Shown here piece by piece: positions 29,167 to 50,945 of a DNA stretch of 54,501 nucleotides. The notes under the pieces were generated by a model. It saw only the letters and a program-made list of their open reading frames with translations. It was not told where the DNA came from and did no database searches. This DNA is from an uncultured Bacilli bacterium (GTDB lineage: Bacteria; Bacillota_I; Bacilli_A; RF39; UBA660), in contig CALVUY010000002.1 in assembly GCA_944363705.1 (NCBI GenBank), positions 1 through 54,501 on the forward strand, in the 5' to 3' direction. Both the position numbers and the translations under genes were made by a program. Position 1 is the first letter of the stretch, and every line of letters starts with the position of its first letter.

Positions 29167-29898
29167 TTAATTATTATTTTTCCATAATATTAAGTCATTT
29201 TTTGCTTCAATAACATTATTATATCTAGAATTAATCATTTTATAAAAAATAATTTCAAGATTATCACTTATATCATCTATAACATCACTTATTAATAAAT
29301 TATCACTTTTTTTCTCATTTATTAATTCATTTAAATTATTATAATTAAATGCTTTTTTATTTGTAATTATCTCATATAATATAATTCCTAAAGCATATAT
29401 GTCAAAATTATATGTAACTTTTTCTTTTCTTAATTGTTCAATAGAACAATAAGATACACTACCATAATCAGTTTTACCACCTATAAATTGAGCTGTACCA
29501 TAATCTATAATATATATGTCCTTATTATTAGAAATTAAAATATTACTAGGCTTCAAATCACAATGAACAATAAAACGATTATGTAACATTTCTACTTTTT
29601 CTATTATTTTAATAAAAACATCTATTTTTTCATTTAAGTTATCAAATTTATAATTATTTAATGTAACACCATCTATATATTCATAAATTATATAATAAGG
29701 ATTTTTATTATTAAAAAATAATACTTTAGGAACAAACGACAATTCCTTTATCTTTTGCCATATATATAGTTCGTTATCTAGCATTTTTAGTAAATCTTCA
29801 TCATAGTTTATTAACTCTTTTTTTAATACTAATTTATTCTCATAAGAAAAAGATGTATATACATATTTATTAGCTTCTGTTTCTTTTTTATCTAGCAT
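29167..29898 (-). CDS. Minimal Ser/Thr protein-kinase-like protein (243 aa)
   Basis: Catalytic loop HCDLKPSNILIS, DYG in place of DFG, and SIEQL in the APE position. Candidate beta3 Lys (LVLKKE) and alphaC Glu (DNELYIW). No TM or extra domains. Overlaps the upstream gene by 11 nt. Confidence 0.65.
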   Translation of the reverse strand: MLDKKETEANKYVYTSFSYENKLVLKKELINYDEDLLKMLDNELYIWQKIKELSFVPKVLFFNNKNPYYIIYEYIDGVTLNNYKFDNLNEKIDVFIKIIEKVEMLHNRFIVHCDLKPSNILISNNKDIYIIDYGTAQFIGGKTDYGSVSYCSIEQLRKEKVTYNFDIYALGIILYEIITNKKAFNYNNLNELINEKKSDNLLISDVIDDISDNLEIIFYKMINSRYNNVIEAKNDLILWKNNN

Positions 29899-30199
29899 TT
29901 TGTTTATGTTTATATACCTTTTCTAGAATATCTTTTTGATTAAAAAGAGTTAAATCATCTTCATCTCTACTAATATTTTTAGTAGCATAATCTACTATTC
30001 CTATACCAGGTATTTCATAATCAATATATATAACTTCATAACTAGAATCATCGCCTTTTAATTTAACAATATCTCCAACTTCTAATTTTTCTTCAAAAGA
30101 TGAATTTTTTTGTAAAGACTTAATATATTGCTCATTATTTTCAACTATATTACCATTTTTATCTTTAAATATTAAATCATCAAAACTAAAATTATCCAT
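29888..30199 (-). CDS. 103-aa acidic protein, candidate immunity protein for toxin 1
   Basis: The ATG at 30199 lies inside the last toxin codons (..AAT AAT GGA TAA), an 8-nt overlap, and GGAGG lies upstream. No known motif. Confidence 0.5.
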   Translation of the reverse strand: MDNFSFDDLIFKDKNGNIVENNEQYIKSLQKNSSFEEKLEVGDIVKLKGDDSSYEVIYIDYEIPGIGIVDYATKNISRDEDDLTLFNQKDILEKVYKHKQNAR

Positions 30200-33100
30200 T
30201 ATTACCTCCATTTTCTATAATATTTCTTATAATATTATAAACATTTCTCGTATTATATTTATTATAGAAGTTAATTAAATGATCAGAAATACCAAGTTTC
30301 TTTAATTCTACAATGTTATCTAATTGTTCTTTAGTATATTTCTGTTCAAGCATATTATCTTTTATTTCTTTATTTCCACGTATTTCTTGAATTTGATAAG
30401 ATGATTTGATTAATTCAGTAGCAAGTTCATTTCGTAAATATTTTTCATTCAAGTTACCTGGGAATCTAACTCTATCTAAGGCATCAGCATCTTTTAAAAT
30501 AGTAGCAATTCTATATACCTCGTTAGCATCATTATTACTAATATTATACTTACTAAATATTCTATTAATATCAGCATTAGTATCACCTGTTTCATGATAC
30601 TCTATAACCGCTGCTATTTTATTTAATTCTTCTTCACTATAATTATTCTCTAACTCTTTAAGAGCTTTAACAGCACTAAGTTCAGCATGATTAGTATCAG
30701 TTTGAAGATTCACTCTACCTGAGTCATGGAATTTAGCAGCTTCTATTAGTATATTCATTTGATCAATATTTAATCCTAGTTCTTCTCCCATATACATTGA
30801 ATAAAATAACACTCTTTCAACATGATCTATATTATGTTCAGGAATATTGATATCATAAAGATCATTACTTTTTAAATATCTAACTTCACTTTCAAATCTT
30901 CCTAATAACCCTTTTTCTTTAAACGTATTCATAATATCATAAAGATCTATTTGATTTTGTGCTAGAGGGCTAGACTTAGAAACAAAATTATTATAATAGC
31001 TTAGTGATTGATTTTTACTATTAATTTTATCTAAATTAAGACTTGATACAATAGACTCTTCCTGAGGAATTAATCTAGCTCTTATTTTTATTTGTCCAGT
31101 ATTTTGATCTATCTTAGGATAGGATATAATTTCAAATTCATTATTACGTCCTAATAATAATTCTTGTTGATTATAGTTTTTAATACCTGCAAACTTTTCT
31201 AAATAGGCTGCTTTAGTTCCTTTAGGAACTTCTATTTCTAAGGATATATGTCTTGTACTAGAAATTTTTTTAGGTATAAGCGAAGTACTCATAAAAGCTT
31301 GATCATTAAATTTTTGACCAATATTAAAAGTATTAATTCTATTACCATCTAAATATAAAGCATCTACACCACGGTATACTAAAATATCATCTTTTAAAGG
31401 TTCTGATTTTTCAATAATATTATCCATAGCTTGGACATATTCATCAACATTAGTATATTTAAATAGTTCGTTAAATTTACCAGTAAAATTTATAGATTTA
31501 GTTAGATATTCATTAATTGATGACTTCTTTTTACCATTAAAAAATCTACCTTTAAAATTAGTAATTGTATGTCTCAAATATGCTGTAACTGCTGGACCAG
31601 CTGCTAAAGTATATGTTTGAATCAAGTCTTTTTCAGTTTCAGTATAACTGTTTCCAATTTTATCAAGGATTTGTAACTTTTTATAAGTCTTTTTATCTTT
31701 TCTAGGTAAATATTTAAGATAATCTTTATAGTCAATATCTCTAATAGATTCATTGGACATTTTATCATATGCTTTTTTTACTTCTTGATTATTGGTAGTA
31801 TTTGCAATTATTTCTAATTGATTTAGAAGAAATTGATTAGCATCATTAAAATAATTGGCAATATCATATTTATCTTGAAAAACTTTAACAGAAGCATCAA
31901 TTGACTGTTCAATTGATGAAGTTAATTTAGCAGTTATACTACTACCATCATCAATATTAGTTAATTTCTCTGTTATCTCACTTCCTTCATCTATATCATG
32001 TAATTTTTCAGTTATTTCAACACCATCATTAGAACTATCCCTTATAGAATCAATACCAGCATTAGTTGCTTCTGCAACACTATTTACCACTTCATCGATA
32101 GTTTCTCTTGTATTAGTATTTCCTGAACTATTTATTTTATTAACATCACTAACTACACCATCTTTATCTACACTAAAGAAAGAATCAATATATTCAGGCT
32201 TAATACAATAAACGTTTTTTTCTTCATTAAAATAAACTAAATCTTCTATCTGTGATCCTTTAGGAATCTTTAAAAAAATCGCTCCATCTACAATATTACT
32301 TCCTTGAGATATTCCATTAGCATTTTTAACATCTCTAATTGCATCTATAATACTATCCATTCTAGTAATAGTTGCATCTATATTAATTTCATCAATACTT
32401 GTTGGAGCTCCTCCTCCACTAGCAGTATGGTTATTACAGTATAGACCTATTTCGCTTATAGATGCTATATCAGAACTTGGTATTGTTTTAATATAAACAT
32501 CATAATTAGGGTCTTCAAATAAATTACTAATATACTCTCCTGTTTCTTCACTTATAAATCCTTTATTATTAATATTTTCTATCATACTATCTAGTTGTTC
32601 TTTAGTGAAAAATCCTGATTCTAATCTACTTTTATAAAATCCTGTTATGTCATTTTCATTTAATTGATAGCCATGAATTTCATCAATTTCTCTTGATATT
32701 GGAACTTGTTCTTTTCCTACAGAAATTCCTTTAATTATTTTGGAAATAGCACTTATACCTGGTATATTTATTCCCTTTATTGATTTAGATACTTTATCTG
32801 CTACTCTATTATTTATATTTTCTTGAAGAATAGAAGTATTTATACTTGATATAGAATCAACTACATCATTTGTCGTTTCTATTACATCTTGATTTTCTGA
32901 TATATTAGTATCACTAATACTTTCAACATTACTTAATTTGTTAACAGTTAAAGAAGGTCCATTCATTGTTCCACTTATTATCATACCATAAATAGTACTT
33001 TTTAGAGCATCTAGATTCAATTGATCTCCATCCAATTGTTCTCCTAAAACTGTACCTCTTAAATAAGCATCTATATATTCTTGAGTACCTTCTTCTCCAC

Positions 33101-34694
33101 CTTCTTTTAATATTGATGTTGCTAATTCTTTAAATGATGTTACATTAACATCATTTAATCCTGGTATAGAACCAATCCATTTTTGCAATGTCGCTTCAGA
33201 AAGACCAGATAATGTTCCATAAAAAACAGCATCTCTTGTACTTACACCATTAACTAAAGCTTGATGATAACTATTTCCACCTGCTGATGTTCCCATTAAA
33301 AATGTACCTGCTGTTGGTGTTGTTAACATTCCTAAAGCCATACTCGGTAACATATTACCAACACTCATACTTATCTCATAATTATTATCTAGAAAGTTTG
33401 CAAAATCTTTATCATCACTTAATGCTTCTAATATATATAAACTCTCATATTCTTCAACACTATATACATCACTAGATTGATGCCATGCGGCAAGTCCTAA
33501 AAAGAAATTCTGGGCTCCATCCCCTATTCCTTTACCTGAAACTTTAAAATGATTCATTATATCCGTATAATCATAATTACCATTTTCATCTTTTTTTAGT
33601 CCTTCTAAAAACTTCTCCGCTTTCTTTTGTCCTGCTAATTGATTTATTTGATCTTCTATATCTTCAAGATATTTATTCGCTGAATCTATCCCTTCTTTTT
33701 CATATAAATAATTATATGTTTTTATTAAATCACTATCTTCATCTGCTACTGATATTAATGTCTTTAATAACCCTTCATTATCCATCGCTGTAGCCGTTGT
33801 ATCAGGATAATTTTCTTGTACCCACATACAAAATTCTAATGGGCTTATATTGTCTCCTGTCTTAGTACAATACTCACTATATGATACCTGAGTACCCATC
33901 TGCATTCGCATTTCATCTATTATGCTTTTATCTATTTGAAACTCATAATTAAAGTTTTGGTAATCTTCTTCTTTAACGAGAAACTCATATTTTGCCATCT
34001 TCTTTAATTGTTCTATTTTATATATAGATGTATTTAAAGTAGTTTGTTGGACCTCTAATTCTTCTATTCTTGCTAAATACTCATCATATGTAGAAAACTC
34101 TGTATTCTCGCTTATCGCTTTATCTAAATTTTCTTTTCTATATTCCTCAATAGATGCAAGTTTCTCTTTTACTTCATCATCTTTTTCTTTAAGCACTTCA
34201 AAAAGTTCAGCATAAGTCATACTAGTTACATCTGCTTGATTTAAGCCTAACTTTTCTAACTCTTCTTCTGGACAAGATATTTTATACCCTTCTATTAACT
34301 GATATATTTCACTAGTTATAGTATTCTCATAGTCTTTACACATATTTTCTATAACAGTTAGATTTGTTCCTGATTCTGCAAAGGCATCTTCTTTTAATAT
34401 TCCAAGTTCATTTTCTGTATCTTCTAACATAGTCTGATATAACTCTAATTCTTTTTCTAAACTAGCTTGATATGTCTTTAAATCTGTATTTTCTATATTA
34501 TAACCTTTATCTATATTAGTAAGATCTATTTGCGTATTAGATGTATTTGTTTGTTCTATCTTAGTTTCATTATTAATATTTCCTATATCTACATCTTCCA
34601 CAGGCTCACTACTACTTTTAGATAAGTTGCCATTTGTAATACTTTTTTTAAACTCAGATAATACATTAGGTATATCTATTTTTATCTTATCCAT
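30192..34694 (-). CDS. Giant polymorphic toxin 1: shared 857-aa N-terminal region + R-S-QxE ADP-ribosyltransferase domain + HD domain
   Basis: 1500 aa. ART motifs: YTLAAGPAVTAYLR, LVYRGV (Arg1108, codon 31371-31373), FMSTS (1136-1138) and NQQELLL (1176-1178). HD motifs: DHVERV, KFHDSGR, EYHETGD and KDADALDRVR (about 30462-30845). Confidence 0.8.
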   Translation of the reverse strand: MDKIKIDIPNVLSEFKKSITNGNLSKSSSEPVEDVDIGNINNETKIEQTNTSNTQIDLTNIDKGYNIENTDLKTYQASLEKELELYQTMLEDTENELGILKEDAFAESGTNLTVIENMCKDYENTITSEIYQLIEGYKISCPEEELEKLGLNQADVTSMTYAELFEVLKEKDDEVKEKLASIEEYRKENLDKAISENTEFSTYDEYLARIEELEVQQTTLNTSIYKIEQLKKMAKYEFLVKEEDYQNFNYEFQIDKSIIDEMRMQMGTQVSYSEYCTKTGDNISPLEFCMWVQENYPDTTATAMDNEGLLKTLISVADEDSDLIKTYNYLYEKEGIDSANKYLEDIEDQINQLAGQKKAEKFLEGLKKDENGNYDYTDIMNHFKVSGKGIGDGAQNFFLGLAAWHQSSDVYSVEEYESLYILEALSDDKDFANFLDNNYEISMSVGNMLPSMALGMLTTPTAGTFLMGTSAGGNSYHQALVNGVSTRDAVFYGTLSGLSEATLQKWIGSIPGLNDVNVTSFKELATSILKEGGEEGTQEYIDAYLRGTVLGEQLDGDQLNLDALKSTIYGMIISGTMNGPSLTVNKLSNVESISDTNISENQDVIETTNDVVDSISSINTSILQENINNRVADKVSKSIKGINIPGISAISKIIKGISVGKEQVPISREIDEIHGYQLNENDITGFYKSRLESGFFTKEQLDSMIENINNKGFISEETGEYISNLFEDPNYDVYIKTIPSSDIASISEIGLYCNNHTASGGGAPTSIDEINIDATITRMDSIIDAIRDVKNANGISQGSNIVDGAIFLKIPKGSQIEDLVYFNEEKNVYCIKPEYIDSFFSVDKDGVVSDVNKINSSGNTNTRETIDEVVNSVAEATNAGIDSIRDSSNDGVEITEKLHDIDEGSEITEKLTNIDDGSSITAKLTSSIEQSIDASVKVFQDKYDIANYFNDANQFLLNQLEIIANTTNNQEVKKAYDKMSNESIRDIDYKDYLKYLPRKDKKTYKKLQILDKIGNSYTETEKDLIQTYTLAAGPAVTAYLRHTITNFKGRFFNGKKKSSINEYLTKSINFTGKFNELFKYTNVDEYVQAMDNIIEKSEPLKDDILVYRGVDALYLDGNRINTFNIGQKFNDQAFMSTSLIPKKISSTRHISLEIEVPKGTKAAYLEKFAGIKNYNQQELLLGRNNEFEIISYPKIDQNTGQIKIRARLIPQEESIVSSLNLDKINSKNQSLSYYNNFVSKSSPLAQNQIDLYDIMNTFKEKGLLGRFESEVRYLKSNDLYDINIPEHNIDHVERVLFYSMYMGEELGLNIDQMNILIEAAKFHDSGRVNLQTDTNHAELSAVKALKELENNYSEEELNKIAAVIEYHETGDTNADINRIFSKYNISNNDANEVYRIATILKDADALDRVRFPGNLNEKYLRNELATELIKSSYQIQEIRGNKEIKDNMLEQKYTKEQLDNIVELKKLGISDHLINFYNKYNTRNVYNIIRNIIENGGNNG
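31914..32027 (-). repeat. Three tandem 36-nt (12-aa) repeats in the toxin 1 linker
   Basis: DGVEITEKLHDI / DEGSEITEKLTNI / DDGSSITAKLTSS. Confidence 0.7.
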
Positions 34695-34699
34695 AGCAA
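32125..34699. repeat. 2575-bp direct repeat, copy A (5' part of toxin 1)
   Basis: Matches 41158-43732 at an offset of 9033 bp. The first mismatches are at 32124/41157 and 34700/43733. The translations are identical over 857 aa and the antisense ORFs are identical (33287-33475 and 42320-42508). Confidence 0.9.
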
Positions 34700-34713: not shown

Positions 34714-34956
34714 TTACATTCTATTACTAACATTAGGCATTATACTATTTACTAACTCATTTTCTAATGAATCAACAGTACTTTTTATATTGTTAAAACT
34801 ACCATCTACTACTGTTTTCTCATCTACTACTAAATTTTCCTTAACACTTACTTTTAAGTCATCAAAAGCTTTATCTAATTCTTGATATTTATTTTTAATA
34901 TGATAAAGCTTACTTAATAACTGTTTATATTTTTCTTTAATTAATTCATCCTCCAT
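34714..34956 (-). CDS. 80-aa alpha-helical protein (toxin-partner candidate)
   Basis: The ATG at 34956 follows GAGGTG. The sequence is coiled-coil-like (MEDELIKEKYKQLLSKLYHIKNKYQELDKAFDDLK...). Position immediately upstream of the toxin matches LXG-associated helical proteins. Confidence 0.55.
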   Translation of the reverse strand: MEDELIKEKYKQLLSKLYHIKNKYQELDKAFDDLKVSVKENLVVDEKTVVDGSFNNIKSTVDSLENELVNSIMPNVSNRM

Positions 34957-34969
34957 AATTAGCACCTCA

Positions 34970-35266
34970 CTAACCGATATCATCAAACATCTTAGATATT
35001 TTCTCACTAGTTGCAATATAAGTTTCCATATTCTTTTTTAAAACTAATATATTATTATCATGAATAGAAACAATAGTCTTAAATTTATTTTTAAAGTTTA
35101 AAGCCAAATTATTTAACTTATCAGAATTATCTGTTTTATAATTAAGGTTTAACGATTCAATAGCTGCATTAATATCTTCAATATTTAATTGTTCATCTTT
35201 TGTCTCTACTTCTAAATTTTTAATAGTTTTAGATATTTCCTCAGTACTAAGAAAATTACCATTCAT
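34970..35266 (-). CDS. 98-aa alpha-helical protein (toxin-partner candidate)
   Basis: The ATG at 35266 follows AGGTGA. Helical composition. Ends ..ISKMFDDIG. Confidence 0.55.
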   Translation of the reverse strand: MNGNFLSTEEISKTIKNLEVETKDEQLNIEDINAAIESLNLNYKTDNSDKLNNLALNFKNKFKTIVSIHDNNILVLKKNMETYIATSEKISKMFDDIG

Positions 35267-35275
35267 CTTTATCAC

Positions 35276-35839
35276 CTACATAAATTCATTAATATCTGCT
35301 TCTTTTATTATCTCAATATTTATCTTGGATAACCTTAAATTAACATCTTTTTCTATTTGTTCTATCTTCTCAAAAATATTTTTTACTTTTTCTTTATCTG
35401 TCACTATTTTTTCTTTTATTTTTATTAACTCTTGTTTTTGTTTTGCTAGTTTATTTGCAATAGTTACTGTACAAAAACTCAAATCTAAGTCATTATATAA
35501 GGAAACTAACTCATTAATCTTCTCCCTAAAATCATTAAACTTAGTGATTACCTTATTTTTTTCTTCCAAATTAACTCTAATTTTATTACCAATACTTTTA
35601 TATTGTTCTATTAAAAAAGTATAAATATCATTTAAAGATTTAAGTTCATTATATGTATTATTAAGTTTAATTTTTTCTGAATTTACATTCGTAAAGAAAA
35701 GTCTTGCATGAAAATCATTCCAATAACCGCTAGCCCAATTGAGCTCATTATAAATATTTAAAATATTTTCATAAAAAGATTCTATACTTTTCGTTAATAA
35801 ATCATATTCTTTTTCAAGTGCTAATACATTAATTTCCAT
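35276..35839 (-). CDS. 187-aa helical protein with W-x-x-G-like turn (NWASGYW)
   Basis: The internal ATG at 35839, preceded by AGGTGA, was chosen. The longer ORF-track version (to 36028) would overlap the Esx-like gene. Long coiled-coil C-terminus. Confidence 0.55.
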   Translation of the reverse strand: MEINVLALEKEYDLLTKSIESFYENILNIYNELNWASGYWNDFHARLFFTNVNSEKIKLNNTYNELKSLNDIYTFLIEQYKSIGNKIRVNLEEKNKVITKFNDFREKINELVSLYNDLDLSFCTVTIANKLAKQKQELIKIKEKIVTDKEKVKNIFEKIEQIEKDVNLRLSKINIEIIKEADINEFM

Positions 35840-35930: not shown

Positions 35931-36584
35931 TTATCCTTGAAGTGTGAATGCCTCAGATATTTTTCCTTCAGTATCACCATAAGCTTCAATTGTGCTTTGA
36001 ATAGCAGTTTTAGTTTCTGTTGTAACATTGGTTACAACCTCATCAATTTTAGTTTTAATTTGTCCAAGTGATTCAACTAAGTTTGCTTGTTGTGAACCAC
36101 CAATAAATCCAGAATTTTGAACAGCACTCTGAGCATTAGATAATGCTGATTCTGCATCTGATGCCAATCCAGGTAATTTATTAGCTACATTTTCAGCGTT
36201 TGCTTTATCTATCCCTCTAACACCTCCAATGTTTTCTAAAATTACACCTGCATCGATTGTTTTAGCAGTTGGTGTAAAAGATACTGGAGAATAGCTTGAC
36301 TCAGTACGAGCAGCCCATGCTTGTCCTGCACTGTTCATAGATGCAACAACGCTTTCAAAAGTACTATTAGAGCTTGTTATAATACTATCAATCGCTGGTT
36401 TAAAAGAATTAGTAAAGAATTTTTGTGCTTGTGTACAAGCCCATTTATCTTGCATTCCTCCTACAAAATCACTTTGCATCTTGTCTCCTAAAACTCCTAT
36501 TAATTCCTCATAGGCAGATATAACTTTTCCTATAGATTGACTTACAATTTCTGGATCAAATCCTGTAATACTTGATGTTGCCAT
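35931..36584 (-). CDS. Double-length WXG100/Esx-like protein (217 aa)
   Basis: The N-terminal half has Esx-like layout: ..DPEIVSQSIGKVISAYEELIGVL....DKWACTQAQKFF, i.e. W-A-C in place of W-x-G, followed by A..F. The second helical half has GFIGGSQQANL. The C-terminus ends EAFTLQG, reminiscent as I recall it of the F-G-L-Q end of S. aureus EsxA. First gene behind a strong promoter. Confidence 0.55.
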   Translation of the reverse strand: MATSSITGFDPEIVSQSIGKVISAYEELIGVLGDKMQSDFVGGMQDKWACTQAQKFFTNSFKPAIDSIITSSNSTFESVVASMNSAGQAWAARTESSYSPVSFTPTAKTIDAGVILENIGGVRGIDKANAENVANKLPGLASDAESALSNAQSAVQNSGFIGGSQQANLVESLGQIKTKIDEVVTNVTTETKTAIQSTIEAYGDTEGKISEAFTLQG

Positions 36585-36635: not shown

Positions 36636-36676
36636 ATCATAATATATTAACACTTAACTGTCAATTAAAATTGACA
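36636..36676 (-). promoter_or_regulatory. Strong sigma-A promoter (TTGACA-17-TATGAT) with palindrome over the -35
   Basis: Minus strand: -35 TTGACA (36659-36664), a 17-nt spacer and -10 TATGAT (36636-36641). Perfect palindrome TGTCAATT-AA-AATTGACA at 36659-36676. Confidence 0.7.
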
Positions 36677-36694
36677 ATAATTTACACAACTTAT

Positions 36695-38343
36695 GTAACT
36701 ATTCAGACTATGAAAAAAATAAAATGTAAAAAGTAGTGTCAACGATGCTGCTTTTTTCAATTATATATGAGAAAATAATAATAGTTAAGGATAGTGGTAT
36801 AAATGATGAAAGTTACAAATGATTTCTATAGGCAATTTGAAGAATTAAATAATAAGTTAGATTCATTATTAAAAGAAAATAAAGATTTAAAGAAAGAATT
36901 TAAACAAGAAAAAGAAGAATTAAAAACCACTATAACTAGTTTAGAAAAAAGCATAAAAGAAAAAGATGAACTTATAGAAAAATTATTAAATGAAATAGAT
37001 AGACTAAAAAATCAAATAAATAAAAATAGTAGTAATTCTAGTAAACCACCCTCAACAGATACAGGAAAGAAAGAAAAAAGTGGAGCCAATTTATATAATT
37101 CTAGAAAAAAGACAGACAAGAAAATAGGAGGACAAAAAGGTCATGAAGGACATAGTCTTACTAAAGATAAAGTTGAAAAGATGATAAAAGATAAACTTGT
37201 AGAAACTAGAACTATTTATCATGAGAGTAATAATAGGAATGGTAAAGATGTTACTAAGTATAGAATAGGCTTAGAAGTAAATGTTTATGTAGAAGAACAT
37301 ATCTTTAAACATAATCCAAATACAGAAGAAAAAATACCAAAAGAGTTTTATACAGATGTAACTTATGATAATAGTATAAAAGCTTTAACAATTGAACTTG
37401 GAACATACAATGTAGTGGCATTAGATAGATTAAGTGATTTATTTAATGTTCTTTCTAAAGGAGTAATAGATATATCTAATGGTACATTAGTTAACTTTCT
37501 AAAAGAGTTTAGTCTAAAGTCAAAACCAACTTTAGACAATCTAGAAAATGATTTATTAAATAAAGCTTTAATGCATACAGACGAAACAACTAACGATAAT
37601 AAATGGTATATAAGGAATTACAGTAATAGTGAAACAGTAGTTTATAAGCCTCATAAAAATAAAGGGCATAAACAAATAGAGGAGCATGATATTTTAACAA
37701 GATATACTGGGGGTATTATGCATGATCATGATACTGCAATGTATAAATATGGTTCTAATAACTATGAATGTAATGTTCATTTGGGAAGATATTTAGAAGA
37801 GATAATTCAAAATGTCTCCGAAGTTACTTGGCCGAAAGATTTAAAAGAATTAATATTTAAAGCATATCATGATAGAAAAGTTTTAATAAAAAAAGGTTGC
37901 AAATCATTTTCTAATATAAAAACTAATGAGATTAGTGCAAAATATGATGAGATTATATCATTAGCCAAGAAAGAAAGTAAAAATATTAAATCTACATATT
38001 ATAAAGAAAAAGCACTTAAACTTATTAGAAGATGTGAAAAATATAAAGATAATCATTTGGCTTTTATATATGATTTTAGTGTTCCTTTTGATAATAATCC
38101 AAGTGAAAGAGATTTAAGGATTATTAAAATTAAAACTAAAATATCTGGAGGATTTAAAAATATAAATAGTGCTGAAGCATATTGTAATGCAATTAGTATT
38201 ATAAAAACATCTCTTAAAAGAAAGATTAATCCTTTTGAATCTATTAAAGATATATTTAACAATAAAGTATTATTTGCAAACTAAAAAGAGCAATTTTTGT
38301 ATAATTACTCTTTACTTTTGCGTGTCATAGTCTGAATAGTTAC
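36695..38343 (+). mobile_element. IS66-family insertion sequence (single-ORF type), 1649 bp
   Basis: Perfect 19-bp terminal inverted repeats GTAACTATTCAGACTATGA (36695-36713 and 38325-38343), starting with GTAA as in IS66. 8-bp target-site duplication CAACTTAT (36687-36694 and 38344-38351). An uninterrupted copy of the target site is at 44303-44310. Confidence 0.9.
36803..38284 (+). CDS. IS66-family transposase
   Basis: 493 aa. N-terminal coiled coil, GGQKGHEGHSL block, CNVHLGRYLEE (C.aH.rR-like) and the C-terminal NNPSERDLRIIKIKTKISGGF block typical of IS66 TnpC. Confidence 0.85.
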   Translation: MMKVTNDFYRQFEELNNKLDSLLKENKDLKKEFKQEKEELKTTITSLEKSIKEKDELIEKLLNEIDRLKNQINKNSSNSSKPPSTDTGKKEKSGANLYNSRKKTDKKIGGQKGHEGHSLTKDKVEKMIKDKLVETRTIYHESNNRNGKDVTKYRIGLEVNVYVEEHIFKHNPNTEEKIPKEFYTDVTYDNSIKALTIELGTYNVVALDRLSDLFNVLSKGVIDISNGTLVNFLKEFSLKSKPTLDNLENDLLNKALMHTDETTNDNKWYIRNYSNSETVVYKPHKNKGHKQIEEHDILTRYTGGIMHDHDTAMYKYGSNNYECNVHLGRYLEEIIQNVSEVTWPKDLKELIFKAYHDRKVLIKKGCKSFSNIKTNEISAKYDEIISLAKKESKNIKSTYYKEKALKLIRRCEKYKDNHLAFIYDFSVPFDNNPSERDLRIIKIKTKISGGFKNINSAEAYCNAISIIKTSLKRKINPFESIKDIFNNKVLFAN

Positions 38344-43727: not shown

Positions 43728-43732
43728 AGCAA
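41158..43732. repeat. 2575-bp direct repeat, copy B (5' part of toxin 2)
   Basis: See 32125-34699. Confidence 0.9.
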
Positions 43733-43774
43733 ACCTCCTCTTTTATTTGCATTATAATTTTATATTTTATTACT

Positions 43775-43889
43775 AATTTTTTTATTTTTATTAAATCTTG
43801 TTTTAGTTTTAACAACTTATTTTCAATAGTTCCTATACAAAATTTAAATCTAAGTCATTATATAAGGAAACTAACTGATTAATTTTCAT
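43775..43889 (-). pseudogene. Remnant of the 187-aa helical-protein gene
   Basis: Aligns by eye to two separated pieces of 35276-35839: the start region (35822-35848) and the 35405-35520 block. The intervening roughly 310 bp are missing, as are the counterparts of the 80- and 98-aa genes. Confidence 0.6.
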
Positions 43890-43980
43890 AGTATCACCTA
43901 ACCATTTTCCAAATATATAAAAACTACAAAATGTAGTTCCCATATATTTAGAAAATAAATTTCTAAATAGCTTATCAATT

Positions 43981-44230
43981 TTATCCCTGAAGTGTGAATA
44001 TCTCAGATATTCTTCAATTGTGTTTTGAACAGCAGTTTCTTTATCTATCCCTATAACAACTCCAACATTTTCTAAAATTACACTTGTATCAATTGTTTTA
44101 GTTATTGGTGCAAAAGATACTGGAGAATAGCTTGACTCAGTATTGCTGGTTTAAAAGATTTAGCAAAGAATTTTTGTGTTTGATTACATGCCTATAAAGT
44201 TCCCATTTTCTCTACAAAAGAACTTTGCTT
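43981..44230 (-). pseudogene. Decayed copy of the Esx-like gene
   Basis: Begins with the same stop-proximal sequence (ttatccctgaagtgtgaa vs ttatccttgaagtgtgaa at 35931). It retains scattered homologous blocks but has several internal deletions and has lost the start-codon region. Confidence 0.65.
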
Positions 44231-44253
44231 TGATAGTTATCCTATCTGATTAA

Positions 44254-44294
44254 ATCATAATATATTAACAATTAACTGTCAATTAAAATTGATA
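44254..44294 (-). promoter_or_regulatory. Second copy of the TTGACA-17-TATGAT promoter with near-palindrome
   Basis: -35 at 44277-44282 and -10 at 44254-44259, with a 17-nt spacer. The palindrome has one mismatch (TGTCAATTAAAATTGATA, 44277-44294). Confidence 0.65.
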
Positions 44295-44306
44295 ATAATA
44301 CACAAC

Positions 44307-44819
44307 TTATTTATCTAGATAATGTGATGTTCTAAAACTGAAACTATCAACCTTACCTTTATTTAATAAATAATCCAAATCTAAAATACTTTCTGATAAA
44401 AGATAAGCATAATCATCTTTATATAATGTTGAAATATTCTCTTTATAATTTTCTAATTCTCTTAAATATTTATTATATTCTTCTAAAGTTAATGTAAACT
44501 CATTTTTATCAATACTTTCTCTTACTAAAGAGAATATCTCCCTACTTATTTTCTCTCCTTTATTATAAGTTTCATCATTATATGTTAATTTAACTTTTAA
44601 ATAATCAGATTTTGAACAAATAAACTCAATATCATTACTTATACTAACCAAAGTAATATCATCATTTTTCTTACAAGCATCTAAAGCTTTATCAGCATAG
44701 TTTTTTTGATACCAATTTTCTAAAGAAGTTAAAATTTTAGATCTCAAATTATCATCCGTTGTATTAACACAATTATTAAACCTTTCTTTAACCATAGCAT
44801 AATATTCTTGATAAGTCAT
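44307..44819 (-). CDS. Hypothetical 170-aa cytoplasmic protein in the T7SS operon
   Basis: ORF 12 nt downstream of the YukD-like gene. No TM segment and no motif recognised. Confidence 0.55.
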   Translation of the reverse strand: MTYQEYYAMVKERFNNCVNTTDDNLRSKILTSLENWYQKNYADKALDACKKNDDITLVSISNDIEFICSKSDYLKVKLTYNDETYNKGEKISREIFSLVRESIDKNEFTLTLEEYNKYLRELENYKENISTLYKDDYAYLLSESILDLDYLLNKGKVDSFSFRTSHYLDK

Positions 44820-44830: not shown

Positions 44831-45091
44831 CTATCTTGATATCAAAATGAGTTCACTACTATTTCTAATATCAGTTTCTAAAATTATTTCATTATTATTA
44901 TAAATTTTACTATTATCTTTATTTATTAATACACAGTCAAGATCATTAAAAGTATTAATATTATTAAGATCACTAACTGACTTCAAAATTAATTTTTTTA
45001 TTTTCCATACTAATTCATTGACTGGTATAAAAACATCAAAAGTAGAATCTAATTCTGGAACTATTAACTTAATTAAAACTTTATTTTTCAT
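44831..45091 (-). CDS. esaB: YukD/EsaB-like small ubiquitin-fold T7SS protein
   Basis: 86 aa counted from the ATG at 45091, which overlaps the essC stop by 11 nt. Size, position and beta-grasp-like pattern (KVLIKLIVPELDSTFDVFIP...ELILISR) fit YukD/EsaB. Confidence 0.6.
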   Translation of the reverse strand: MKNKVLIKLIVPELDSTFDVFIPVNELVWKIKKLILKSVSDLNNINTFNDLDCVLINKDNSKIYNNNEIILETDIRNSSELILISR

Positions 45092-48000
45092 CTTGTTCCT
45101 CCTCTTTACTAACAAAATCAATAACTTTTAGAAGTGTTGCATACCCTTCACTTATATAATAAGCCATATTGTTTTTAATATCTTTTGACATTTCTTTTGT
45201 TATTGTAGATAAACGAAGTACATTTTGATCACTTACACCTCTACCAATAAAGATACCATCATTACTACTAAATGTTCCTGTAAACCAAGATTCAAAAGCA
45301 TATTGTTTAATTTTAGCAGCATCATCTACTACAATTACACTAATCTTCTCATATTCTTTTATCTTCTTAATAAACTCTAACATCTTATTATTGTCATTTA
45401 ATTTAGAAATAAATTTAGCAAGTCCATAAATCAAAATAACACCTTCATTTTCACTTTTAGAGTCTATTAATTTTTGTAAGTATTCAATTATTTTACCTAA
45501 AATATCTGAGATATCTTCTGTATAATAATTAGGATATTCATTTCTATCTAGATTTAAATCTTTTGTTACATCTATAACCATTAGAGTACTACCTTTAATA
45601 GAATTAATTATCATTAATAGGCTTTTAATAAAGTTTAAACTACTATTAATTCTATTTGCTGTAATAATATTACCAGGTGCTGCTAAAAAGTCTACTGTTA
45701 CTATTTCTAAATCTTTTTTACTAATACCTATAGGTACATTTCCTAAATTAGATACTTCTTCTAAAATATCATTATATCTAATAATATCTGGAAGAGTTGG
45801 TATCCTTTTAGCTTTTATAACAGATTTTTCTTTTTCCTTAGCGACGAAATCAACTAAATAGTCATTTAAGATAGCATCATCTTCTGTAATACTAGCTGTT
45901 TGAAATTCATGTATACCATCATTTTTAAGATAACCTCTACCTAAAATATCTCTTGGCATAGTTTTAGCTCTAAGTCCTAAAACACTACTATAATCACTGC
46001 TATCTTTTAATTTATAAGCATATACATTAGTAAAATTAGATGTTAATTTACTACTAATTGAATTTATAGCATTAGCAGTTATAATAAATATAACACCATA
46101 ATTAACAGAATCTCTAATTAAATCTGATATTTCTTCATAAAGATTAGGATTACTTCCATACAAGGAATCAAAATTATTTATAATAACAGTTATAACTGGT
46201 AGTTTTTCTTCTGCAGTCTTAATATAATTTAAGTAACTTCCACCACTATTTACAAATAACTTCTTTCTTCTTGATAACTCTTCTCTTAATAATTTTAGTA
46301 AGTTATTATATTTCTCATCTTCACTCTGAAATACTATTCCTCCTACATGAGGTAAGCCAATAAATCTTCTTAAAGTTTCTGAACCATAATCAATAATATA
46401 ATAGTTTAGTTCCTGTGCTCCATGATATTTACAAGTTGAATAAATAATAGTATTTAAAAGCATTTCTTTTTCTGCACCATCATTACCATATATTAGAGTA
46501 TTACCATCATCTAAAAAGTTATATTTAACAATACCTTGTTCTTGCTTTTCTGGAGCATCATATTCTCCTACAATGGCTTCAATGTTATAAGGATTAATAT
46601 TGATATTATATTTTTCTACTAATTTATCTGTAACAATTACATTAGGTATATTTGGAAGCCATAACCTTTTAGCTTTCTTATTAACAGAACTAGAAATATC
46701 GATAATACTTTTTAATATAGAAGTTATCTGTTCTCCTTTTGCTTCTGTCTTTCTAGAAGTAGCTGCTTGAATACTTTTAATTGGAATACCAAAGTCATTT
46801 ATAAAGTTTATACTTTTATCTACTTGTTTAACAATCTTTTCAGATGGATAATACTTAGCACCACACCATGCAGATTGTCCTAGTGCAAAATATTCATCAT
46901 AACCAACTTGTAAATAAAACCTTCCTGTTTGTTTTATGCTAGCAGCTTCTGGACGTTTTAACATTTCTTTACTATCAGCTTCATCTTGAACTTTTAAACA
47001 AACTCTAAACTTAGTATTAGACCAAATTTGATCATTAACAACACCACTTGGTTTTTGGGTTGCAAGTATTAAATGAACACCTAAACTACGTCCTATTCTG
47101 GCAACAGATATTAAATTATCCATAAAGTCTGGTTGTTGACTTTTAAGTTCAGCGAACTCATCACAGATTATAAATAAATGTGGTATCGCTTCTGTTAGTT
47201 TACCTTCCTTAAAGAATCTTTGATATTTATAAATATCAATTGTACTCTCCCCTAAATTATCTCTAGCACTATTAAATAAAGCTTGTCTTCTTTGAAGTTC
47301 ACTATTAATACTAACTAAAGTTCTATCCATCTCAGCTTTATCTAAGTTTGTAATAGTTCCTGCTAAGTGTGGTAGATTGATTCCAGTAACTTTATTTTCA
47401 AAAGCACCTGCTAAACCTCCACCTTTATAATCGATTAAAATAAAGGCAACATCATCAGGACTATAATTAATAGCCATTGATAAAATATAGGTAATAATGA
47501 ATTCTGATTTACCACTACCTGTCATCCCTGCTATTAAGCCATGAGGTCCATGATACTTTTCATGAAGGTCTAAATACATTAAATCTCCATCTTCGGAAAC
47601 ACCTACTTCTGCTTTTAAACTAGTAGTAGAGTCAGACGTATTCCATCTATTTAAAATATTAAGTTGTTCTACTTTTCCTACTTTTTCCATTTCAAGAAAA
47701 GTAATCATATCTGGCAATTCTTTTAGTCCATCTTCAAACTCTATTGGAATATTTGATAACACTTTAGTAATTTGCATCATATCAATATTATAATTAATCT
47801 CATCAGAGAAAGCTATCTGTTCTTGCTTTTCATAAGAATTCTTTAATATACCAGAATTATTATCACCAACAGTAATAAAATTATTACATTTACTTGGTAA
47901 CTTACTTAATCTATTTTCTATTATCAACAGACTAAAACCAATATCTTCATCATCTTCTGTTTCAGTAATTGTCTTAATTAAATCATATCTTTTAAGCATA

Positions 48001-49640
48001 TCTAAATCGTCAACTATAACTAAATAATGTGGTTTATATGGATTACTTTTCCCTTGCTTTTGATTTAGTCTTTGATTAGCAACTAATTCTAAGTAATCTG
48101 CCACATTTTTAGTAGAATCCAAATCAGTTGCAAAGAGTCTAAAATTCATCTCATTAGTAAAGGTGTGTTTTAAATATCTAAGATATTCAAAATTACCTTT
48201 ATTATTTTCATTAGTGAAAACAGCTATTTTAATATCTTCATAACTATAAAATGCTAATAGTTGAACAATTACATTATGAACAAAATTAACTGCCTTATAT
48301 CTTTCTCCCATAATTGCTGTTGTTTTATTTTCATATAAAGAATATCCTATAGGGACATTTTCAATATATTTAAATTCCTCTACTAACTTATCAGCAGCAT
48401 CTCTTAATTCGCTCTCATCAATGGTAAATCCTTCTTCAGGATAATCTATTTTTACATCTAATTTTTCTTTTCCTATACCAAGTCTTACTACTAAAAAGTC
48501 GCTTTGATCAACTCTTTTATCCCAAAAGTTAATACTTTTGTTCTTAATAATATTTAAGCATTCATTAACTGTTATTAAATTTTCAAACAAAATATTTTTC
48601 TGTAACTTAGCTTCTTCTGTCAATTCTTTTCTTTTCTCATCCAAGTAAGCAGTGTATTTTTTTATTAACTCTTCTTTATGTTTCTTTTTCATTCTTCTGT
48701 TATACCACTGAGTAACTAATGGCCATACTAACATAGAAACTAACATCGCTCCGCTTGTAACAAGTTGAGGCCATGAATCAGCTACTGTTGTTTCTTTAGA
48801 ATAAATACGTGATATTGTATTGAGAAGCATGGTTAAAGACATAATACCCATTGTAAGCATAGGACCAATGGTAAGTATTAAAGGTAGTTGATTAGAATCA
48901 TTTTCACGCGGTGGGGCACTTAATTTTATTTCTTTTGTTTCAATAACTCTTCTAATTCGAGGTGATTTTGAAAAATAATCGTCTTTACTGTATAAATCTA
49001 TGTCTTTAACTTCAACATTGATAGGTTTATCTAGTTCTGGAAAAGAATAACTAGTTAATTTTGAAGTTTCTAGGTTAATGTTAGCGACTAAATTTGTTAT
49101 TAAAAGGTTATTTAAAAATAGTAAAGATAAACCATATATTTCAATTAAATCTCCATTATTTATAGTGTAAGAACTACTAGATAAAATATGTTTATTAATA
49201 TAAATAGGAAGGTTATCACTTTTCTCTAATATTAATCTTCCTTCTTTAATACTAATTTTTGCTAATAGGTTGTTTAAGTAAGGACAATTATAATTAATAG
49301 TAGCAGCACTCACATTACCTACTATTAAATTTATATTAGAATCATATGAGTATACTGCTATATTTTTAAAACTAATATCACTAACATGAATTAAATAATT
49401 AATATTATTTCTTCTTAATATATAAAAATTATTAGGTACAATCACTTCTCTACTATTACCATTATTAGTAATGATTTTGACATCACTAGTTTCATAAAGA
49501 ACCCATTTACCCTCACTTGCTTCTACATTTATTAATTTACTTTCTTCTTTTTCATTAAAGTCAAAAGTATAACTTCCAGATACTTCTTCTGGTAGTTTAA
49601 AATCTATAATTTTATCATTCAAAAACAATGTTATCTTCAT
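45081..49640 (-). CDS. essC: T7SSb ATPase EssC/YukB-like (FtsK/SpoIIIE family)
   Basis: 1519 aa. N-terminal FHA-like repeats (MKITLFLNDKIIDFKLPEEVSGSYTF...), two TM helices (LPLILTIGPMLTMGIMSL.., SGAMLVSMLVWPLV) and a P-loop domain with GMTGSGKSEF (about 47505-47535) plus LFIICDEFAEL Walker B. Two further P-loop-like domains follow, with degenerate Walker A sequences. Confidence 0.9.
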   Translation of the reverse strand: MKITLFLNDKIIDFKLPEEVSGSYTFDFNEKEESKLINVEASEGKWVLYETSDVKIITNNGNSREVIVPNNFYILRRNNINYLIHVSDISFKNIAVYSYDSNINLIVGNVSAATINYNCPYLNNLLAKISIKEGRLILEKSDNLPIYINKHILSSSSYTINNGDLIEIYGLSLLFLNNLLITNLVANINLETSKLTSYSFPELDKPINVEVKDIDLYSKDDYFSKSPRIRRVIETKEIKLSAPPRENDSNQLPLILTIGPMLTMGIMSLTMLLNTISRIYSKETTVADSWPQLVTSGAMLVSMLVWPLVTQWYNRRMKKKHKEELIKKYTAYLDEKRKELTEEAKLQKNILFENLITVNECLNIIKNKSINFWDKRVDQSDFLVVRLGIGKEKLDVKIDYPEEGFTIDESELRDAADKLVEEFKYIENVPIGYSLYENKTTAIMGERYKAVNFVHNVIVQLLAFYSYEDIKIAVFTNENNKGNFEYLRYLKHTFTNEMNFRLFATDLDSTKNVADYLELVANQRLNQKQGKSNPYKPHYLVIVDDLDMLKRYDLIKTITETEDDEDIGFSLLIIENRLSKLPSKCNNFITVGDNNSGILKNSYEKQEQIAFSDEINYNIDMMQITKVLSNIPIEFEDGLKELPDMITFLEMEKVGKVEQLNILNRWNTSDSTTSLKAEVGVSEDGDLMYLDLHEKYHGPHGLIAGMTGSGKSEFIITYILSMAINYSPDDVAFILIDYKGGGLAGAFENKVTGINLPHLAGTITNLDKAEMDRTLVSINSELQRRQALFNSARDNLGESTIDIYKYQRFFKEGKLTEAIPHLFIICDEFAELKSQQPDFMDNLISVARIGRSLGVHLILATQKPSGVVNDQIWSNTKFRVCLKVQDEADSKEMLKRPEAASIKQTGRFYLQVGYDEYFALGQSAWCGAKYYPSEKIVKQVDKSINFINDFGIPIKSIQAATSRKTEAKGEQITSILKSIIDISSSVNKKAKRLWLPNIPNVIVTDKLVEKYNININPYNIEAIVGEYDAPEKQEQGIVKYNFLDDGNTLIYGNDGAEKEMLLNTIIYSTCKYHGAQELNYYIIDYGSETLRRFIGLPHVGGIVFQSEDEKYNNLLKLLREELSRRKKLFVNSGGSYLNYIKTAEEKLPVITVIINNFDSLYGSNPNLYEEISDLIRDSVNYGVIFIITANAINSISSKLTSNFTNVYAYKLKDSSDYSSVLGLRAKTMPRDILGRGYLKNDGIHEFQTASITEDDAILNDYLVDFVAKEKEKSVIKAKRIPTLPDIIRYNDILEEVSNLGNVPIGISKKDLEIVTVDFLAAPGNIITANRINSSLNFIKSLLMIINSIKGSTLMVIDVTKDLNLDRNEYPNYYTEDISDILGKIIEYLQKLIDSKSENEGVILIYGLAKFISKLNDNNKMLEFIKKIKEYEKISVIVVDDAAKIKQYAFESWFTGTFSSNDGIFIGRGVSDQNVLRLSTITKEMSKDIKNNMAYYISEGYATLLKVIDFVSKEEEQDEK

Positions 49641-49730
49641 ATGCTTACACCTTTTCTTACCTTATATATTAATTATAGCATTTATTTATTTATTCGAAAA
49701 GATATTAAAAAGAAAAACTCCAAAATGGGG

Positions 49731-50945
49731 TTATATGTGCTTCTTATAATCAGAATCATTATTTTGCTTTATTTTTTCTAAACCATCTTGCAAAATATGT
49801 AATTTAATTAGAATAATTACTCTTATATAGTCTTTATCTTTTAACATTGAAGCAATTCCTCCAATTCTAGAAAGACTTTTTAAACTTTTTATATAATCAA
49901 AAACTTCGTTATATGTACTAGTAATTATTAATTTCTTGTGAACATCTTTTTCTGATATAAATTTCTTTATATAATCTTGTTGAACTGCATTTCTAAGTTC
50001 TCCTATATGATCTTTAATTATTATCATTTCTTCAATCATATTAATTTCATCATTAGTTTTTGAAAAAAGTTGTACCTCATCAAAATTTATTTTTAAATTT
50101 ATATATTCTTCAACTATTTCATCATCATCTGTTTTTTCTACTCTATCTTTTAAATTATTAATTTTATCTTGTAAATAAAATGCTTGAGATATAAGCATAG
50201 CCACTTCATCATCAATAGAATTAAAATAGCTCTTAACCATACCATCAAAATTTTCTAAATGTTGATGGTACCAGTCAAGAATCTTATTATATGCATTTTC
50301 CATTGTTACATCTATTTCTGCTCTTGCTATATCATATCCAGCATAATATTTATATTTTTCAGTTAATTCTTCTATTTTTCTTAAAAATACATTTTCAATA
50401 CTATATTTTTCTTTTATTTCTAATAATTTTTCATAAAGCTCATCAAAACTACAGTTATAATTTATTGTTTCAGTCACTTCATCCTTATTAATACCATTCT
50501 TCTCATAAAATTCTTTTTCAAAGTCTTTATACACCATAATTATTTTAGTAAGTGCACTTAGATAATTACTATCAACCTCACTAACTGTATTATATGTTTT
50601 TGATGAAAAATTCCTAATAATTTCATTTATATAAAAAACATAATTTGGAAAGAGTTGTACATATTTTTTTAATTGATATATCTTTAACACCTCTATTCTT
50701 TCCATCATATAATTAAAAACTACATCTATATTCTCTTGATAATCACTTCTATCTTTATTATTTAGTAATGTTTCATATGCTAAATTAATATTTTTTAGTT
50801 TTTCTTCAGCTTTTATTCTTTCTTTATCATCTTTAAAATTATCTGGATGATATTTCTTTGCTAATTTACGATAAACTATTTTAAGTTCTTTTTCACTATA
50901 ACTACTACTAATCTTTAAAATTTCTAAGGCCTCATAAACTGTCAT
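49731..50945 (-). CDS. J-domain (DnaJ-like) protein with a long helical C-terminal region
   Basis: The N-terminal roughly 65 aa carry YEALEI...ELKIVYRKLAKKYHPDN...INLAYETL (HPD motif). There is no G/F region and no zinc finger. 404 aa. Confidence 0.75.
   Translation of the reverse strand: MTVYEALEILKISSSYSEKELKIVYRKLAKKYHPDNFKDDKERIKAEEKLKNINLAYETLLNNKDRSDYQENIDVVFNYMMERIEVLKIYQLKKYVQLFPNYVFYINEIIRNFSSKTYNTVSEVDSNYLSALTKIIMVYKDFEKEFYEKNGINKDEVTETINYNCSFDELYEKLLEIKEKYSIENVFLRKIEELTEKYKYYAGYDIARAEIDVTMENAYNKILDWYHQHLENFDGMVKSYFNSIDDEVAMLISQAFYLQDKINNLKDRVEKTDDDEIVEEYINLKINFDEVQLFSKTNDEINMIEEMIIIKDHIGELRNAVQQDYIKKFISEKDVHKKLIITSTYNEVFDYIKSLKSLSRIGGIASMLKDKDYIRVIILIKLHILQDGLEKIKQNNDSDYKKHI

Follow-up and report, generated by a model that had tools for sequence, protein, structure and literature searches.

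Gene content and layout of the island

The subject of this work is an island of genes for a type VII secretion system (T7SS), located at positions 29167-50945 of a stretch of 54,501 nucleotides (nt) from an uncultured Bacilli bacterium (GTDB lineage RF39; UBA660; assembly GCA_944363705.1, contig CALVUY010000002.1). This whole stretch, with a G+C content of ~26%, is called the window, and all coordinates are positions in it; related essC loci are named L### and homologous proteins P####. The island encodes the ATPase EssC, a small ubiquitin-like protein, four conserved helical proteins and two giant predicted toxins, and no recognisable EssA, EssB/YukC or EsaA/YueB, the membrane proteins known from the T7SSb systems of Staphylococcus aureus (Ess) and Bacillus subtilis (Yuk/Yue).

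Every gene from 50945 to 29167 lies on the minus strand, except one transposase (36803-38284), as found by a strand check of all the genes, and in agreement with an earlier sequence-only reading of this DNA, in which the island was described as co-directional apart from an inserted insertion sequence (IS). In the order of transcription, the J-domain gene comes first, followed by essC, the genes of the 86-amino acid (aa) ubiquitin-like protein and of a 170-aa protein, and a stretch of 574 bp without intact open reading frames (ORFs). Then follow the gene of the 1784-aa toxin 1, the IS on the plus strand, the genes of the helical proteins of 217, 187, 98 and 80 aa (p218, p187, s98 and s81, respectively), the gene of the 1500-aa toxin 2, and those of a 107-aa protein and a 243-aa kinase. 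Esx-like genes had been placed between the 170-aa gene and toxin 1; this needed correction, as 43733-44306 holds only a decayed copy and the intact helical genes follow the IS, at 34714-36584. On one side the island borders a GntR-ABC operon, and on the other an ArsC-family gene with rnc; these flanks are an unrelated operon and housekeeping genes, as had been described. Regarding the terminator assigned after the kinase gene, the hairpin is visible in the sequence; it is AT-rich and was missed by the scan.

EssC and the ubiquitin-like protein

The identity of the 1519-aa protein as EssC, already assigned by the sequence-only reading, is established. It scores 993.9 bits with the NCBIfam equivalog model T7_EssCb_Firm (TIGR03928), whose cutoff is 778.4, and matches Pfam FtsK_SpoIIIE at 6e-40. 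Its closest relative in the PDB is YukB of B. subtilis (chain 9qks_G, E = 1e-149), with an alignment that covers residues 196-990 and runs from the stalk through ATPase 1. The P-loop GMTGSGKSE is invariant among 14 aligned homologues (58-95% identity), as are other motifs, and the close relatives, which number in the hundreds, are all ~1520 aa long. A TM (transmembrane) segment was predicted at approximately residues 252-270 by a Kyte-Doolittle scan, and each protomer of EssC, a T7SSb-type ATPase, has two TM helices. In addition, essC has its own extended -10 promoter, 3' of the hairpin that follows the J-domain gene.

Ahead of the TM helices there is a domain of ~220 aa, conserved within the clade. 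The first 195 residues are not alignable with YukB and have no Pfam match in the window protein, leaving the "FHA-like" label once given to this N-terminus unverified; a precomputed FHA match (PF00498) is present on one homologue only, P0017. Moreover, the canonical GR and SxxH motifs for phosphothreonine binding were not seen by eye in the N-terminal 200 residues. Regulation of EssC through a kinase and an FHA domain is not supported, as the kinase gene is found in six loci only, always after an immunity-like gene.

The start of the ubiquitin-like gene overlaps the stop of essC, and ORF clustering found this gene in 79 of 81 loci. The AlphaFold2 (AF2) model of the 86-aa protein is a ubiquitin-like beta-grasp fold (pLDDT 87.8), and its Foldseek matches include ubiquitin, SUMO and ISG15 (TM 0.6-0.7), together with the ubiquitin-like domain of EccD5 from the mycobacterial ESX-5 complex (TMq ~0.67). 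YukD was not among the top 50 of these matches, and a sequence-profile search against the PDB gave nothing useful. The protein ends in LILISR, with no Gly-Gly. Among close members of the family, 2 of 38 match Pfam YukD (PF08817), at E ~0.08; among distant members, taken from an exhaustive profile search that returned 434 cluster representatives, 15 of 47 do so, the best at 2.2e-4, below gathering level. Hence, the YukD/EsaB-like assignment of the sequence-only reading gains from the predicted fold and from these intermediate sequences, and not from a YukD match of the window protein itself. On the basis of the modelled fold and the intermediates, the protein is regarded as a divergent EsaB/YukD/TsxB.

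A conserved six-gene unit without linked membrane partners

A scan of species-representative genomes gave at least 574 tblastn-confirmed stretches with relatives of EssC, of which the 79 best loci were analysed, while ORF clustering covered ~81 loci. The 79 loci come from metagenome-assembled genomes (MAGs) of uncultured 'Bacilli', 'Tenericutes' and 'Erysipelotrichaceae', from Ca. Onthousia and Ca. Faecimonas, both Bacilli incertae sedis, and from Clostridium sp. CAG:451; the group may correspond to the GTDB order RFN20. The record titles of L010, L011, L038, L041, L043, L046, L055 and L078 name Muribaculaceae or Methanobacteriaceae, probably because the MAG bins were mislabelled or are chimeric.

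As seen by ORF clustering, EssC is followed in a conserved order by proteins of ~88, ~218, ~187, ~98 and ~81 aa, forming a six-gene unit of ~7 kb. The comparison of synteny across related genomes, which the sequence-only reading had named as a check, therefore yields one conserved order among ~80 loci. In a census with hidden Markov models (HMMs), restricted to the 51 loci in which the sequence downstream of essC extends for 4 kb or more, the ubiquitin-like protein was detected in 50, p218 and p187 in 44 each, s98 in 43 and s81 in 42. The flanks of these loci vary; judged by a look at the sequences, they include ffh/ftsY/ylxM, rpsF-ssb-rpsR, rplK-A-J-L, NTP-transferases, GntR-ABC and ArsC-rnc. 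Consequently, the conserved partners of EssC are, besides the ubiquitin-like protein, four helical WXG100-like proteins, which the sequence-only reading had mentioned merely as "Esx-like and small helical genes". The 170-aa, J-domain and kinase-like proteins, to which it had given possible accessory roles, are present in 5, 2 and 6 of ~81 loci, respectively, and lose that role.

None of the island proteins matches a model for EssA, EssB/YukC or EsaA/YueB (10 proteins scanned with NCBIfam and 13 with Pfam), and the Kyte-Doolittle scan found TM segments in no island protein other than EssC. Thus, no ORF of 40 aa or more with a TM segment could stand for an EssA-like small membrane protein, and no EsaA/YueB-like polytopic protein is encoded. 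There is likewise no EssB/YukC-like membrane pseudokinase, the sole kinase of the island being soluble, with intact catalytic motifs. Since EssC is the only TM protein and the models have no match, the earlier observation that the island lacks these partners is confirmed. The genes of the core unit abut, and therefore small ORFs could not be hidden between them.

The neighbourhoods of essC were also scanned for co-directional proteins with 1-3 TM segments, up to six genes upstream and up to 12 genes downstream, and 108 representatives were compared with Pfam. No recurrent membrane family, EsaA/YueB-like or other, was found near essC in the ~80 loci: no Pfam family occurs in more than two of the 108 TM neighbours, and those that occur twice are peptidoglycan carboxypeptidases, M23 peptidases, glycosyltransferases and similar. 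The upstream families c20, c60 and c61 of distant relatives were considered as a hidden EssB, EsaA or EsxA, and were rejected because by sequence they look like peptidoglycan carboxypeptidase, FtsY/Ffh and YlxM. Linked membrane partners are lacking around essC, and the six-gene unit is conserved. From the essC neighbourhoods, which were the area searched, we infer that EssA, EssB and EsaA are absent genome-wide. The sequence-only reading had left two options, missing parts encoded elsewhere or a reduced or alternative apparatus; the ~80 loci, with the same soluble genes after essC, differing housekeeping flanks and no recurrent membrane protein, favour the second.

The four helical proteins

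As described for each family below, the relationship of the helical partners to WXG100 proteins is supported at the family level, by sequence comparison. The invariant motifs of p218 are DKWAC, ENIGGVRGID and GF.GG, and 11 of 42 members of its family match Pfam WXG100 (best 6.5e-7). The family profile gives a colinear but weak alignment with ESAT-6 and S. aureus EsxA. In the AF2 model (pLDDT 89.6, pTM 0.85), a hairpin with the invariant tryptophan at its turn is followed by an ordered loop and a second hairpin; a Foldseek search of the PDB with this model returned no analogue at E<0.001. Three of the 42 members match Pfam Flagellin_C, the best at 5e-8, and precomputed PF00700 matches stand on six p218 homologues (P0269, P0276, P0289, P0293, P0318 and P0331). 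These flagellin-like matches perhaps reflect only helical composition; alternatively, they may hint at a polymerising extracellular protein.

Regarding p187, 8 of 41 members match Pfam WXG100 and 4 of 41 match YwqH-like (best 5.6e-5), and the protein can be aligned weakly and colinearly with EsxB and EsxA. The s98 family profile matches Helicobacter pylori HP0062 (E = 0.004), which we take to be an ESAT-6-like protein, and s98 matches NCBIfam ESAT6_2 at E = 0.003. The smallest partner, s81, has no match in Pfam, NCBIfam or the family-profile search.

The p218 gene is preceded by a near-consensus, sigma-70-like promoter, TTGACA-17-TATGAT, whose -35 box is overlapped by the palindrome TGTCAATTTTAATTGACA (36640-36690), which may be an operator for some regulator. 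Promoter sequence and palindrome are conserved in L083 (~16780-16840) and in the decayed copy (44229-44304).

Table 1. Features of the island and its surroundings, with coordinates in the window
Feature	Position	Strand	Basis or remark
essC, 1519-aa membrane-bound FtsK/SpoIIIE-type ATPase	45081..49640	-	NCBIfam, Pfam and PDB profile matches
Ubiquitin-like protein, 86 aa (EsaB/YukD/TsxB-type)	44831..45091	-	Start overlaps essC stop by 11 nt
p218, 217-aa helical protein	35931..36584	-	WXG100-type hairpin with invariant Trp at the turn, then second hairpin
p187, 187-aa helical protein, WXG100/YwqH-like	35276..35839	-	Nearly invariant Trp44
s98, 98-aa helical hairpin, ESAT-6-like	34970..35266	-	Family profile, NCBIfam
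s81, 80-aa helical protein, fourth conserved small partner	34714..34956	-	Locus conservation
Sigma-70-like promoter of p218	36636..36664	-	Best such promoter of the region
Decayed copy of p218 promoter and p218/p187 genes	43733..44306	-	77-93% identity in pieces, no intact ORF
Toxin 1 (predicted), 1784 aa	38373..43727	-	Shared 857-aa N-terminus (presumed delivery region), HExxH domain, long helical C-terminus
Toxin 2 (predicted), 1500 aa	30192..34694	-	Same N-terminal 857 aa; ADP-ribosyltransferase and HD phosphohydrolase C-terminus
Perfect direct repeat, 2575 bp	32125..34699 and 41158..43732	.	Spans the first 857 codons of both toxins
170-aa protein, immunity-like	44307..44819	-	5 loci; orphan directly 3' of the ubiquitin-like gene
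107-aa protein, immunity-like for the ADP-ribosyltransferase/HD toxin type	29888..30211	-	After c10-type toxins in L006, L007 and L061
Soluble Ser/Thr kinase domain, 243 aa	29167..29898	-	HCDLKPSN and DYG; 6 loci, always behind an immunity-like gene
J-domain protein, 404 aa	49731..50945	-	DnaJ domain at residues 8-69 only
Two tandem cassettes beyond the island: 165-aa immunity-like gene and 374/376-aa protein	22296..25822	-	Homology to toxin C-termini
IS66-family insertion sequence	36695..38343	+	493-aa transposase, 19-bp perfect terminal inverted repeats, 8-bp target duplication ATAAGTTG

Toxins, immunity-like genes and other cargo

As judged from their sequences, both giant proteins are predicted polymorphic toxins, and their export is presumed. 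The perfect repeat of 2575 bp that they share points to a very recent duplication or gene conversion, and is likely a recombination substrate for the swapping of toxin C-termini. In toxin 1, for which no Pfam domain was found, residues ~884-1128 contain the HExxH motif and are homologous to the C-terminus of the toxins of cluster c27 (L001, L004 and L031). Toxin 2 matches ADPrib_exo_Tox (5.7e-23) and HD (3.5e-6), combining an ADP-ribosyltransferase (ART) with an HD domain, and shares 52% identity with the toxins of cluster c10 (L006 and L007). The LXG domain (PF04740) has no match in the two window toxins, their sub-segments or seven related toxins. In the shared N-terminus, at residues ~440-480 (e.g., 42290-42410), there is a Gly/Ala/Thr-rich hydrophobic stretch, MLPSMALGMLTTPTAGTFLMGTSAGG; stretches of this type are scored as TM segments in several related toxins, and it may act on membranes, as an element resembling a glycine zipper.

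Homologues of the 170-aa protein stand directly after the c27-type toxin in L001, L004 and L031, and those of the 107-aa protein follow the c10-type toxins. Because they sit behind their cognate toxin types, both look like immunity proteins, and the 170-aa protein was rejected as an accessory factor of the system since it travels with the c27-type toxin. In relatives, the position after the ubiquitin-like gene is taken by a DUF4176 gene and a toxin instead of the 170-aa gene; a DUF4176 protein reportedly stabilises an LXG toxin.

The kinase matches the PADLOC model PD-T4-6 (3e-31) slightly better than Pkinase (2.6e-27). As PD-T4-6 is a single-gene anti-phage kinase, the gene may be a defence gene riding on the variable island, and not a part of the T7SS. 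The J-domain gene forms a transcription unit of its own, with a TTGACA-17-TATAAT promoter and a hairpin resembling a terminator; the only other locus with a homologue is L031, where it lies at a different position. With two loci, its own promoter and a hairpin, it was rejected as a core part, that is, as a chaperone of the system.

In the two tandem cassettes beyond the island, the copies of the 165-aa protein are 100% identical to each other, and the 374- and 376-aa proteins are 50% identical. The latter are homologous to the C-terminal domains of giant toxins elsewhere, where members of the 165-aa family follow such toxins, and the layout recurs in the independent contig L087. By sequence, these cassettes appear to be orphan toxin-domain/immunity modules. 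Just past the GntR-ABC operon, a 439-aa protein (53093-54412, plus strand) has Schlafen AlbA_2, HATPase_c_4 and winged-helix regions, with weak matches to defence-associated CARF/HTH profiles.

Insertion sequence and rearrangement around the island

The transposase of the IS matches DDE_Tnp_IS66 (8.6e-27) and also DUF6444. The element is inserted between toxin 1 and the promoter of p218, which is intact, and its site is empty in the near-identical strain L083. In L083-L085, where the ubiquitin-like protein is 99% identical to that of the window, the ABC permease gene adjoins ArsC-rnc-RNase J, and next after RNase J and two fragments of ORF6N comes the T7SS island; in the window (25890-51856), the island lies between the ABC operon and ArsC. 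As read from these gene orders, the island, or else the 3.2-kb block from ArsC to RNase J, has moved within one species.

Comparison with described systems

What EssA, EssB and EsaA do in T7SSb is still not clear, and we know of no complete T7SSb structure. As described for B. subtilis by cryo-electron microscopy, YukB forms the central channel with YukC dimers placed peripherally around it, and the FHA and DUF domains of YukB clamp YukD between them 'like a ball in a hand' (PMC12637312). Beyond T7SSb, Garrett, Higginson & Palmer (2024) defined the subtypes T7SSc-j from RefSeq genomes, with an ATPase in all of them, a WXG100 protein in nearly all and a ubiquitin-like protein in most (PMC11217815). 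Several of these variants are without EssA, EssB and EsaA, and partners unrelated to them, such as TsdI and TsgL, occur in other subtypes (PMC11217815).

The island resembles T7SSb in an EssC that passes the T7SSb equivalog and has YukB as its best PDB relative, in a small ubiquitin-like protein without Gly-Gly, in helical proteins that are of WXG100 type by family-level evidence, and in giant polymorphic toxins with immunity-like genes downstream, along with the DUF4176-toxin cassettes of the relatives. However, described T7SSb loci hold essA, essB and esaA in one operon with essC (PMC11217815), whereas here the island contains none of the three, nor do they occur at up to 10 kb from essC in ~80 relatives. 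Moreover, the esaB-like gene is here placed downstream of essC, with which it overlaps, four helical proteins stand in place of the single EsxA of ~100 aa, two of them being extended WXG100 derivatives of ~200 aa, the toxins have no detectable LXG domain, and the N-terminal domain of EssC is not alignable to that of YukB.

Among the other subtypes, T7SSg and T7SSf are likewise built of the ATPase TsxC, the ubiquitin-like protein TsxB and one or more WXG100 proteins (TsxA), without EssA, EssB and EsaA (PMC11217815), and T7SSg, with two WXG100 paralogues and few other parts, comes close to this locus in simplicity. T7SSg differs in that TsgC lacks an N-terminal domain and that a DUF5050 beta-propeller protein, TsgL, and adjoining Tad pilus genes are present (PMC11217815); EssC of the window has its 220-aa N-terminal domain, and no conserved beta-propeller or Tad genes were found among the neighbours of ~80 loci. 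T7SSf is set apart by its PPM phosphatase, by TsfJ (an FHA/DUF6382 protein) and by TsfV (an AAA+ protein) (PMC11217815); no counterpart of these was seen here. With T7SSa, the ESX systems of Actinomycetota, the island shares an FtsK-like ATPase, a ubiquitin-like module that would contact the ATPase and presumed substrates of WXG100 type, but it has no EccB, EccD, EccE or MycP, and its ubiquitin-like module is a separate protein. This combination of parts occurs in none of the described subtypes; the survey drew on RefSeq genomes and did not cover the clade considered here, which is represented by MAGs only. Text searches of the literature returned no description of this subtype, or of a T7SS in this clade.

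Proposed mechanism and alternatives

The island probably encodes a minimal T7SS with a cargo of polymorphic toxins, belonging to uncultured, walled, low-GC gut Bacilli, and the best reading of this minimal system is that of a new, widespread T7SS subtype, comparable to the T7SSc-j variants. A conserved pair of essC and a translationally coupled ubiquitin-like gene fits the YukB/YukD core, without the YukC ring and the wall-spanning EsaA, and a translocon made of an EssC hexamer is therefore proposed. In this hexamer, 12 TM helices would form the only dedicated membrane channel. The ubiquitin-like protein would be gripped between the N-terminal and DUF domains of EssC, locking an assembly-competent conformation, as YukD does for YukB. 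The four helical proteins would act as EsxA-like secreted co-substrates and targeting partners, bundling with the helical N-terminal region of the toxins and presenting them to the ATPase domains of EssC. The HExxH-domain and ART+HD toxins would then be exported against competitors, with the adjacent small genes providing self-immunity. That the system is active, that its partners have these roles and that the toxins are exported is what we infer from the genes. In its full form the proposal is a tentative one: possibly this is an undescribed subtype outside T7SSa-j, found in hundreds of gut Bacilli species, in which the EssC hexamer would be the sole dedicated membrane component in a walled cell and four WXG100-derived proteins would replace the functions of EsxA and of EssA/EssB/EsaA, possibly including an extracellular role of the 217-aa protein.

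Loss of the cell wall, which might have accounted for the loss of EsaA, was rejected. The window encodes a class B penicillin-binding protein that has PASTA domains and an FtsL-like protein of the DivIC family, together with FtsA-, FtsZ-, MraZ- and RsmH-like genes identified by sequence only, and the relatives encode peptidoglycan carboxypeptidases, amidases and other peptidoglycan hydrolases, SpoIIP and a germination protease. The organism thus makes peptidoglycan, and therefore wall loss does not explain the reduction.

Several points weigh against the minimal system. EssB, EsaA and EssA are required for secretion in both B. subtilis and S. aureus, and a function of EssC without them in a walled cell is therefore hypothetical. 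The system is known here from its genes alone, and EssA, EssB and EsaA, or unrelated membrane partners, could lie elsewhere in the genome. Among the TM neighbours, no T7SS membrane family was seen in the 25 listed of 115 matched families, among the rest of which a lone YukC match could hide. The 86-aa protein of the window does not match Pfam YukD, and the window's own p218 and p187 fall below the Pfam thresholds, the WXG100 evidence being that of their families. Finally, as no LXG domain is detectable, the status of the toxins as T7SS substrates follows from their position and architecture only.

Two alternatives keep the idea of further membrane partners. According to the first, the system would be a canonical T7SSb whose genes for EssA, EssB/YukC and EsaA/YueB are unlinked and lie elsewhere on the chromosome. 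This is consistent with an EssC that passes a T7SSb-specific equivalog model and has kept the ~220-aa domain ahead of its TM helices, as the same region of YukB binds YukC (PMC12637312). The area searched was the surroundings of essC rather than the whole genome, and the near-identical strain shows that the island can shift relative to its neighbours, so that gene order is fluid in this lineage. Nevertheless, ~80 genomes, with EssC identities of 40-95%, have none of these genes within 10 kb of essC, although described T7SSb loci keep them in the essC operon (PMC11217815); the esaB-like gene has been relocated and overlaps the 3' end of essC, and EssC and YukB cannot be aligned in their N-terminal domains. 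Canonical T7SSb with scattered genes is thus considered unlikely.

The second alternative, considered equally improbable, holds that partners non-homologous to EssA, EssB and EsaA serve the membrane and wall, either encoded elsewhere or co-opted from housekeeping, or that one of the helical proteins does so, for example as a p218 polymer forming a conduit through the wall. As peptidoglycan is present, some route through the wall is needed, and the unrelated TsdI and TsgL set a precedent in other T7SS subtypes; against such partners, no conserved membrane gene is linked to essC. For the conduit, several p218 homologues match Flagellin_C, and p218 has an ordered, invariant loop, ENIGGVRGID, and no analogue in the PDB. 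However, the flagellin-like matches concern a minority of members and could reflect a helical composition rich in Ala, Gln and Ser, and polymerisation is a conjecture from sequence features only.

A decaying T7SSb remnant that no longer secretes would fit the loss of the usual partners, the decayed gene copy at 43733-44306, the IS insertion and the orphan immunity gene, but it is very improbable given an intact ORF of 1519 aa with Walker and other motifs invariant across 14 homologues, a six-gene unit kept in most of ~80 species-level genomes, toxin C-termini that are actively diversifying beside a perfect, recent 2.6-kb duplication, and a strong promoter conserved ahead of p218.

Implications

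The minimal system bears on the question of which T7SS parts are truly necessary for translocation. If the proposal is true, a six-gene system with a T7SSb-type EssC, spread over hundreds of species with small genomes, would offer a simple model in which to ask whether EssC and a ubiquitin-like clamp can serve alone as the channel, what the N-terminal domain of EssC binds without EssB, and how large toxins without an LXG domain are targeted. In addition, a common group of uncultured Bacilli of the animal and human gut carries an active-looking arsenal of predicted interbacterial toxins, among them one of ART+HD and one of HExxH type, along with orphan toxin/immunity cassettes.

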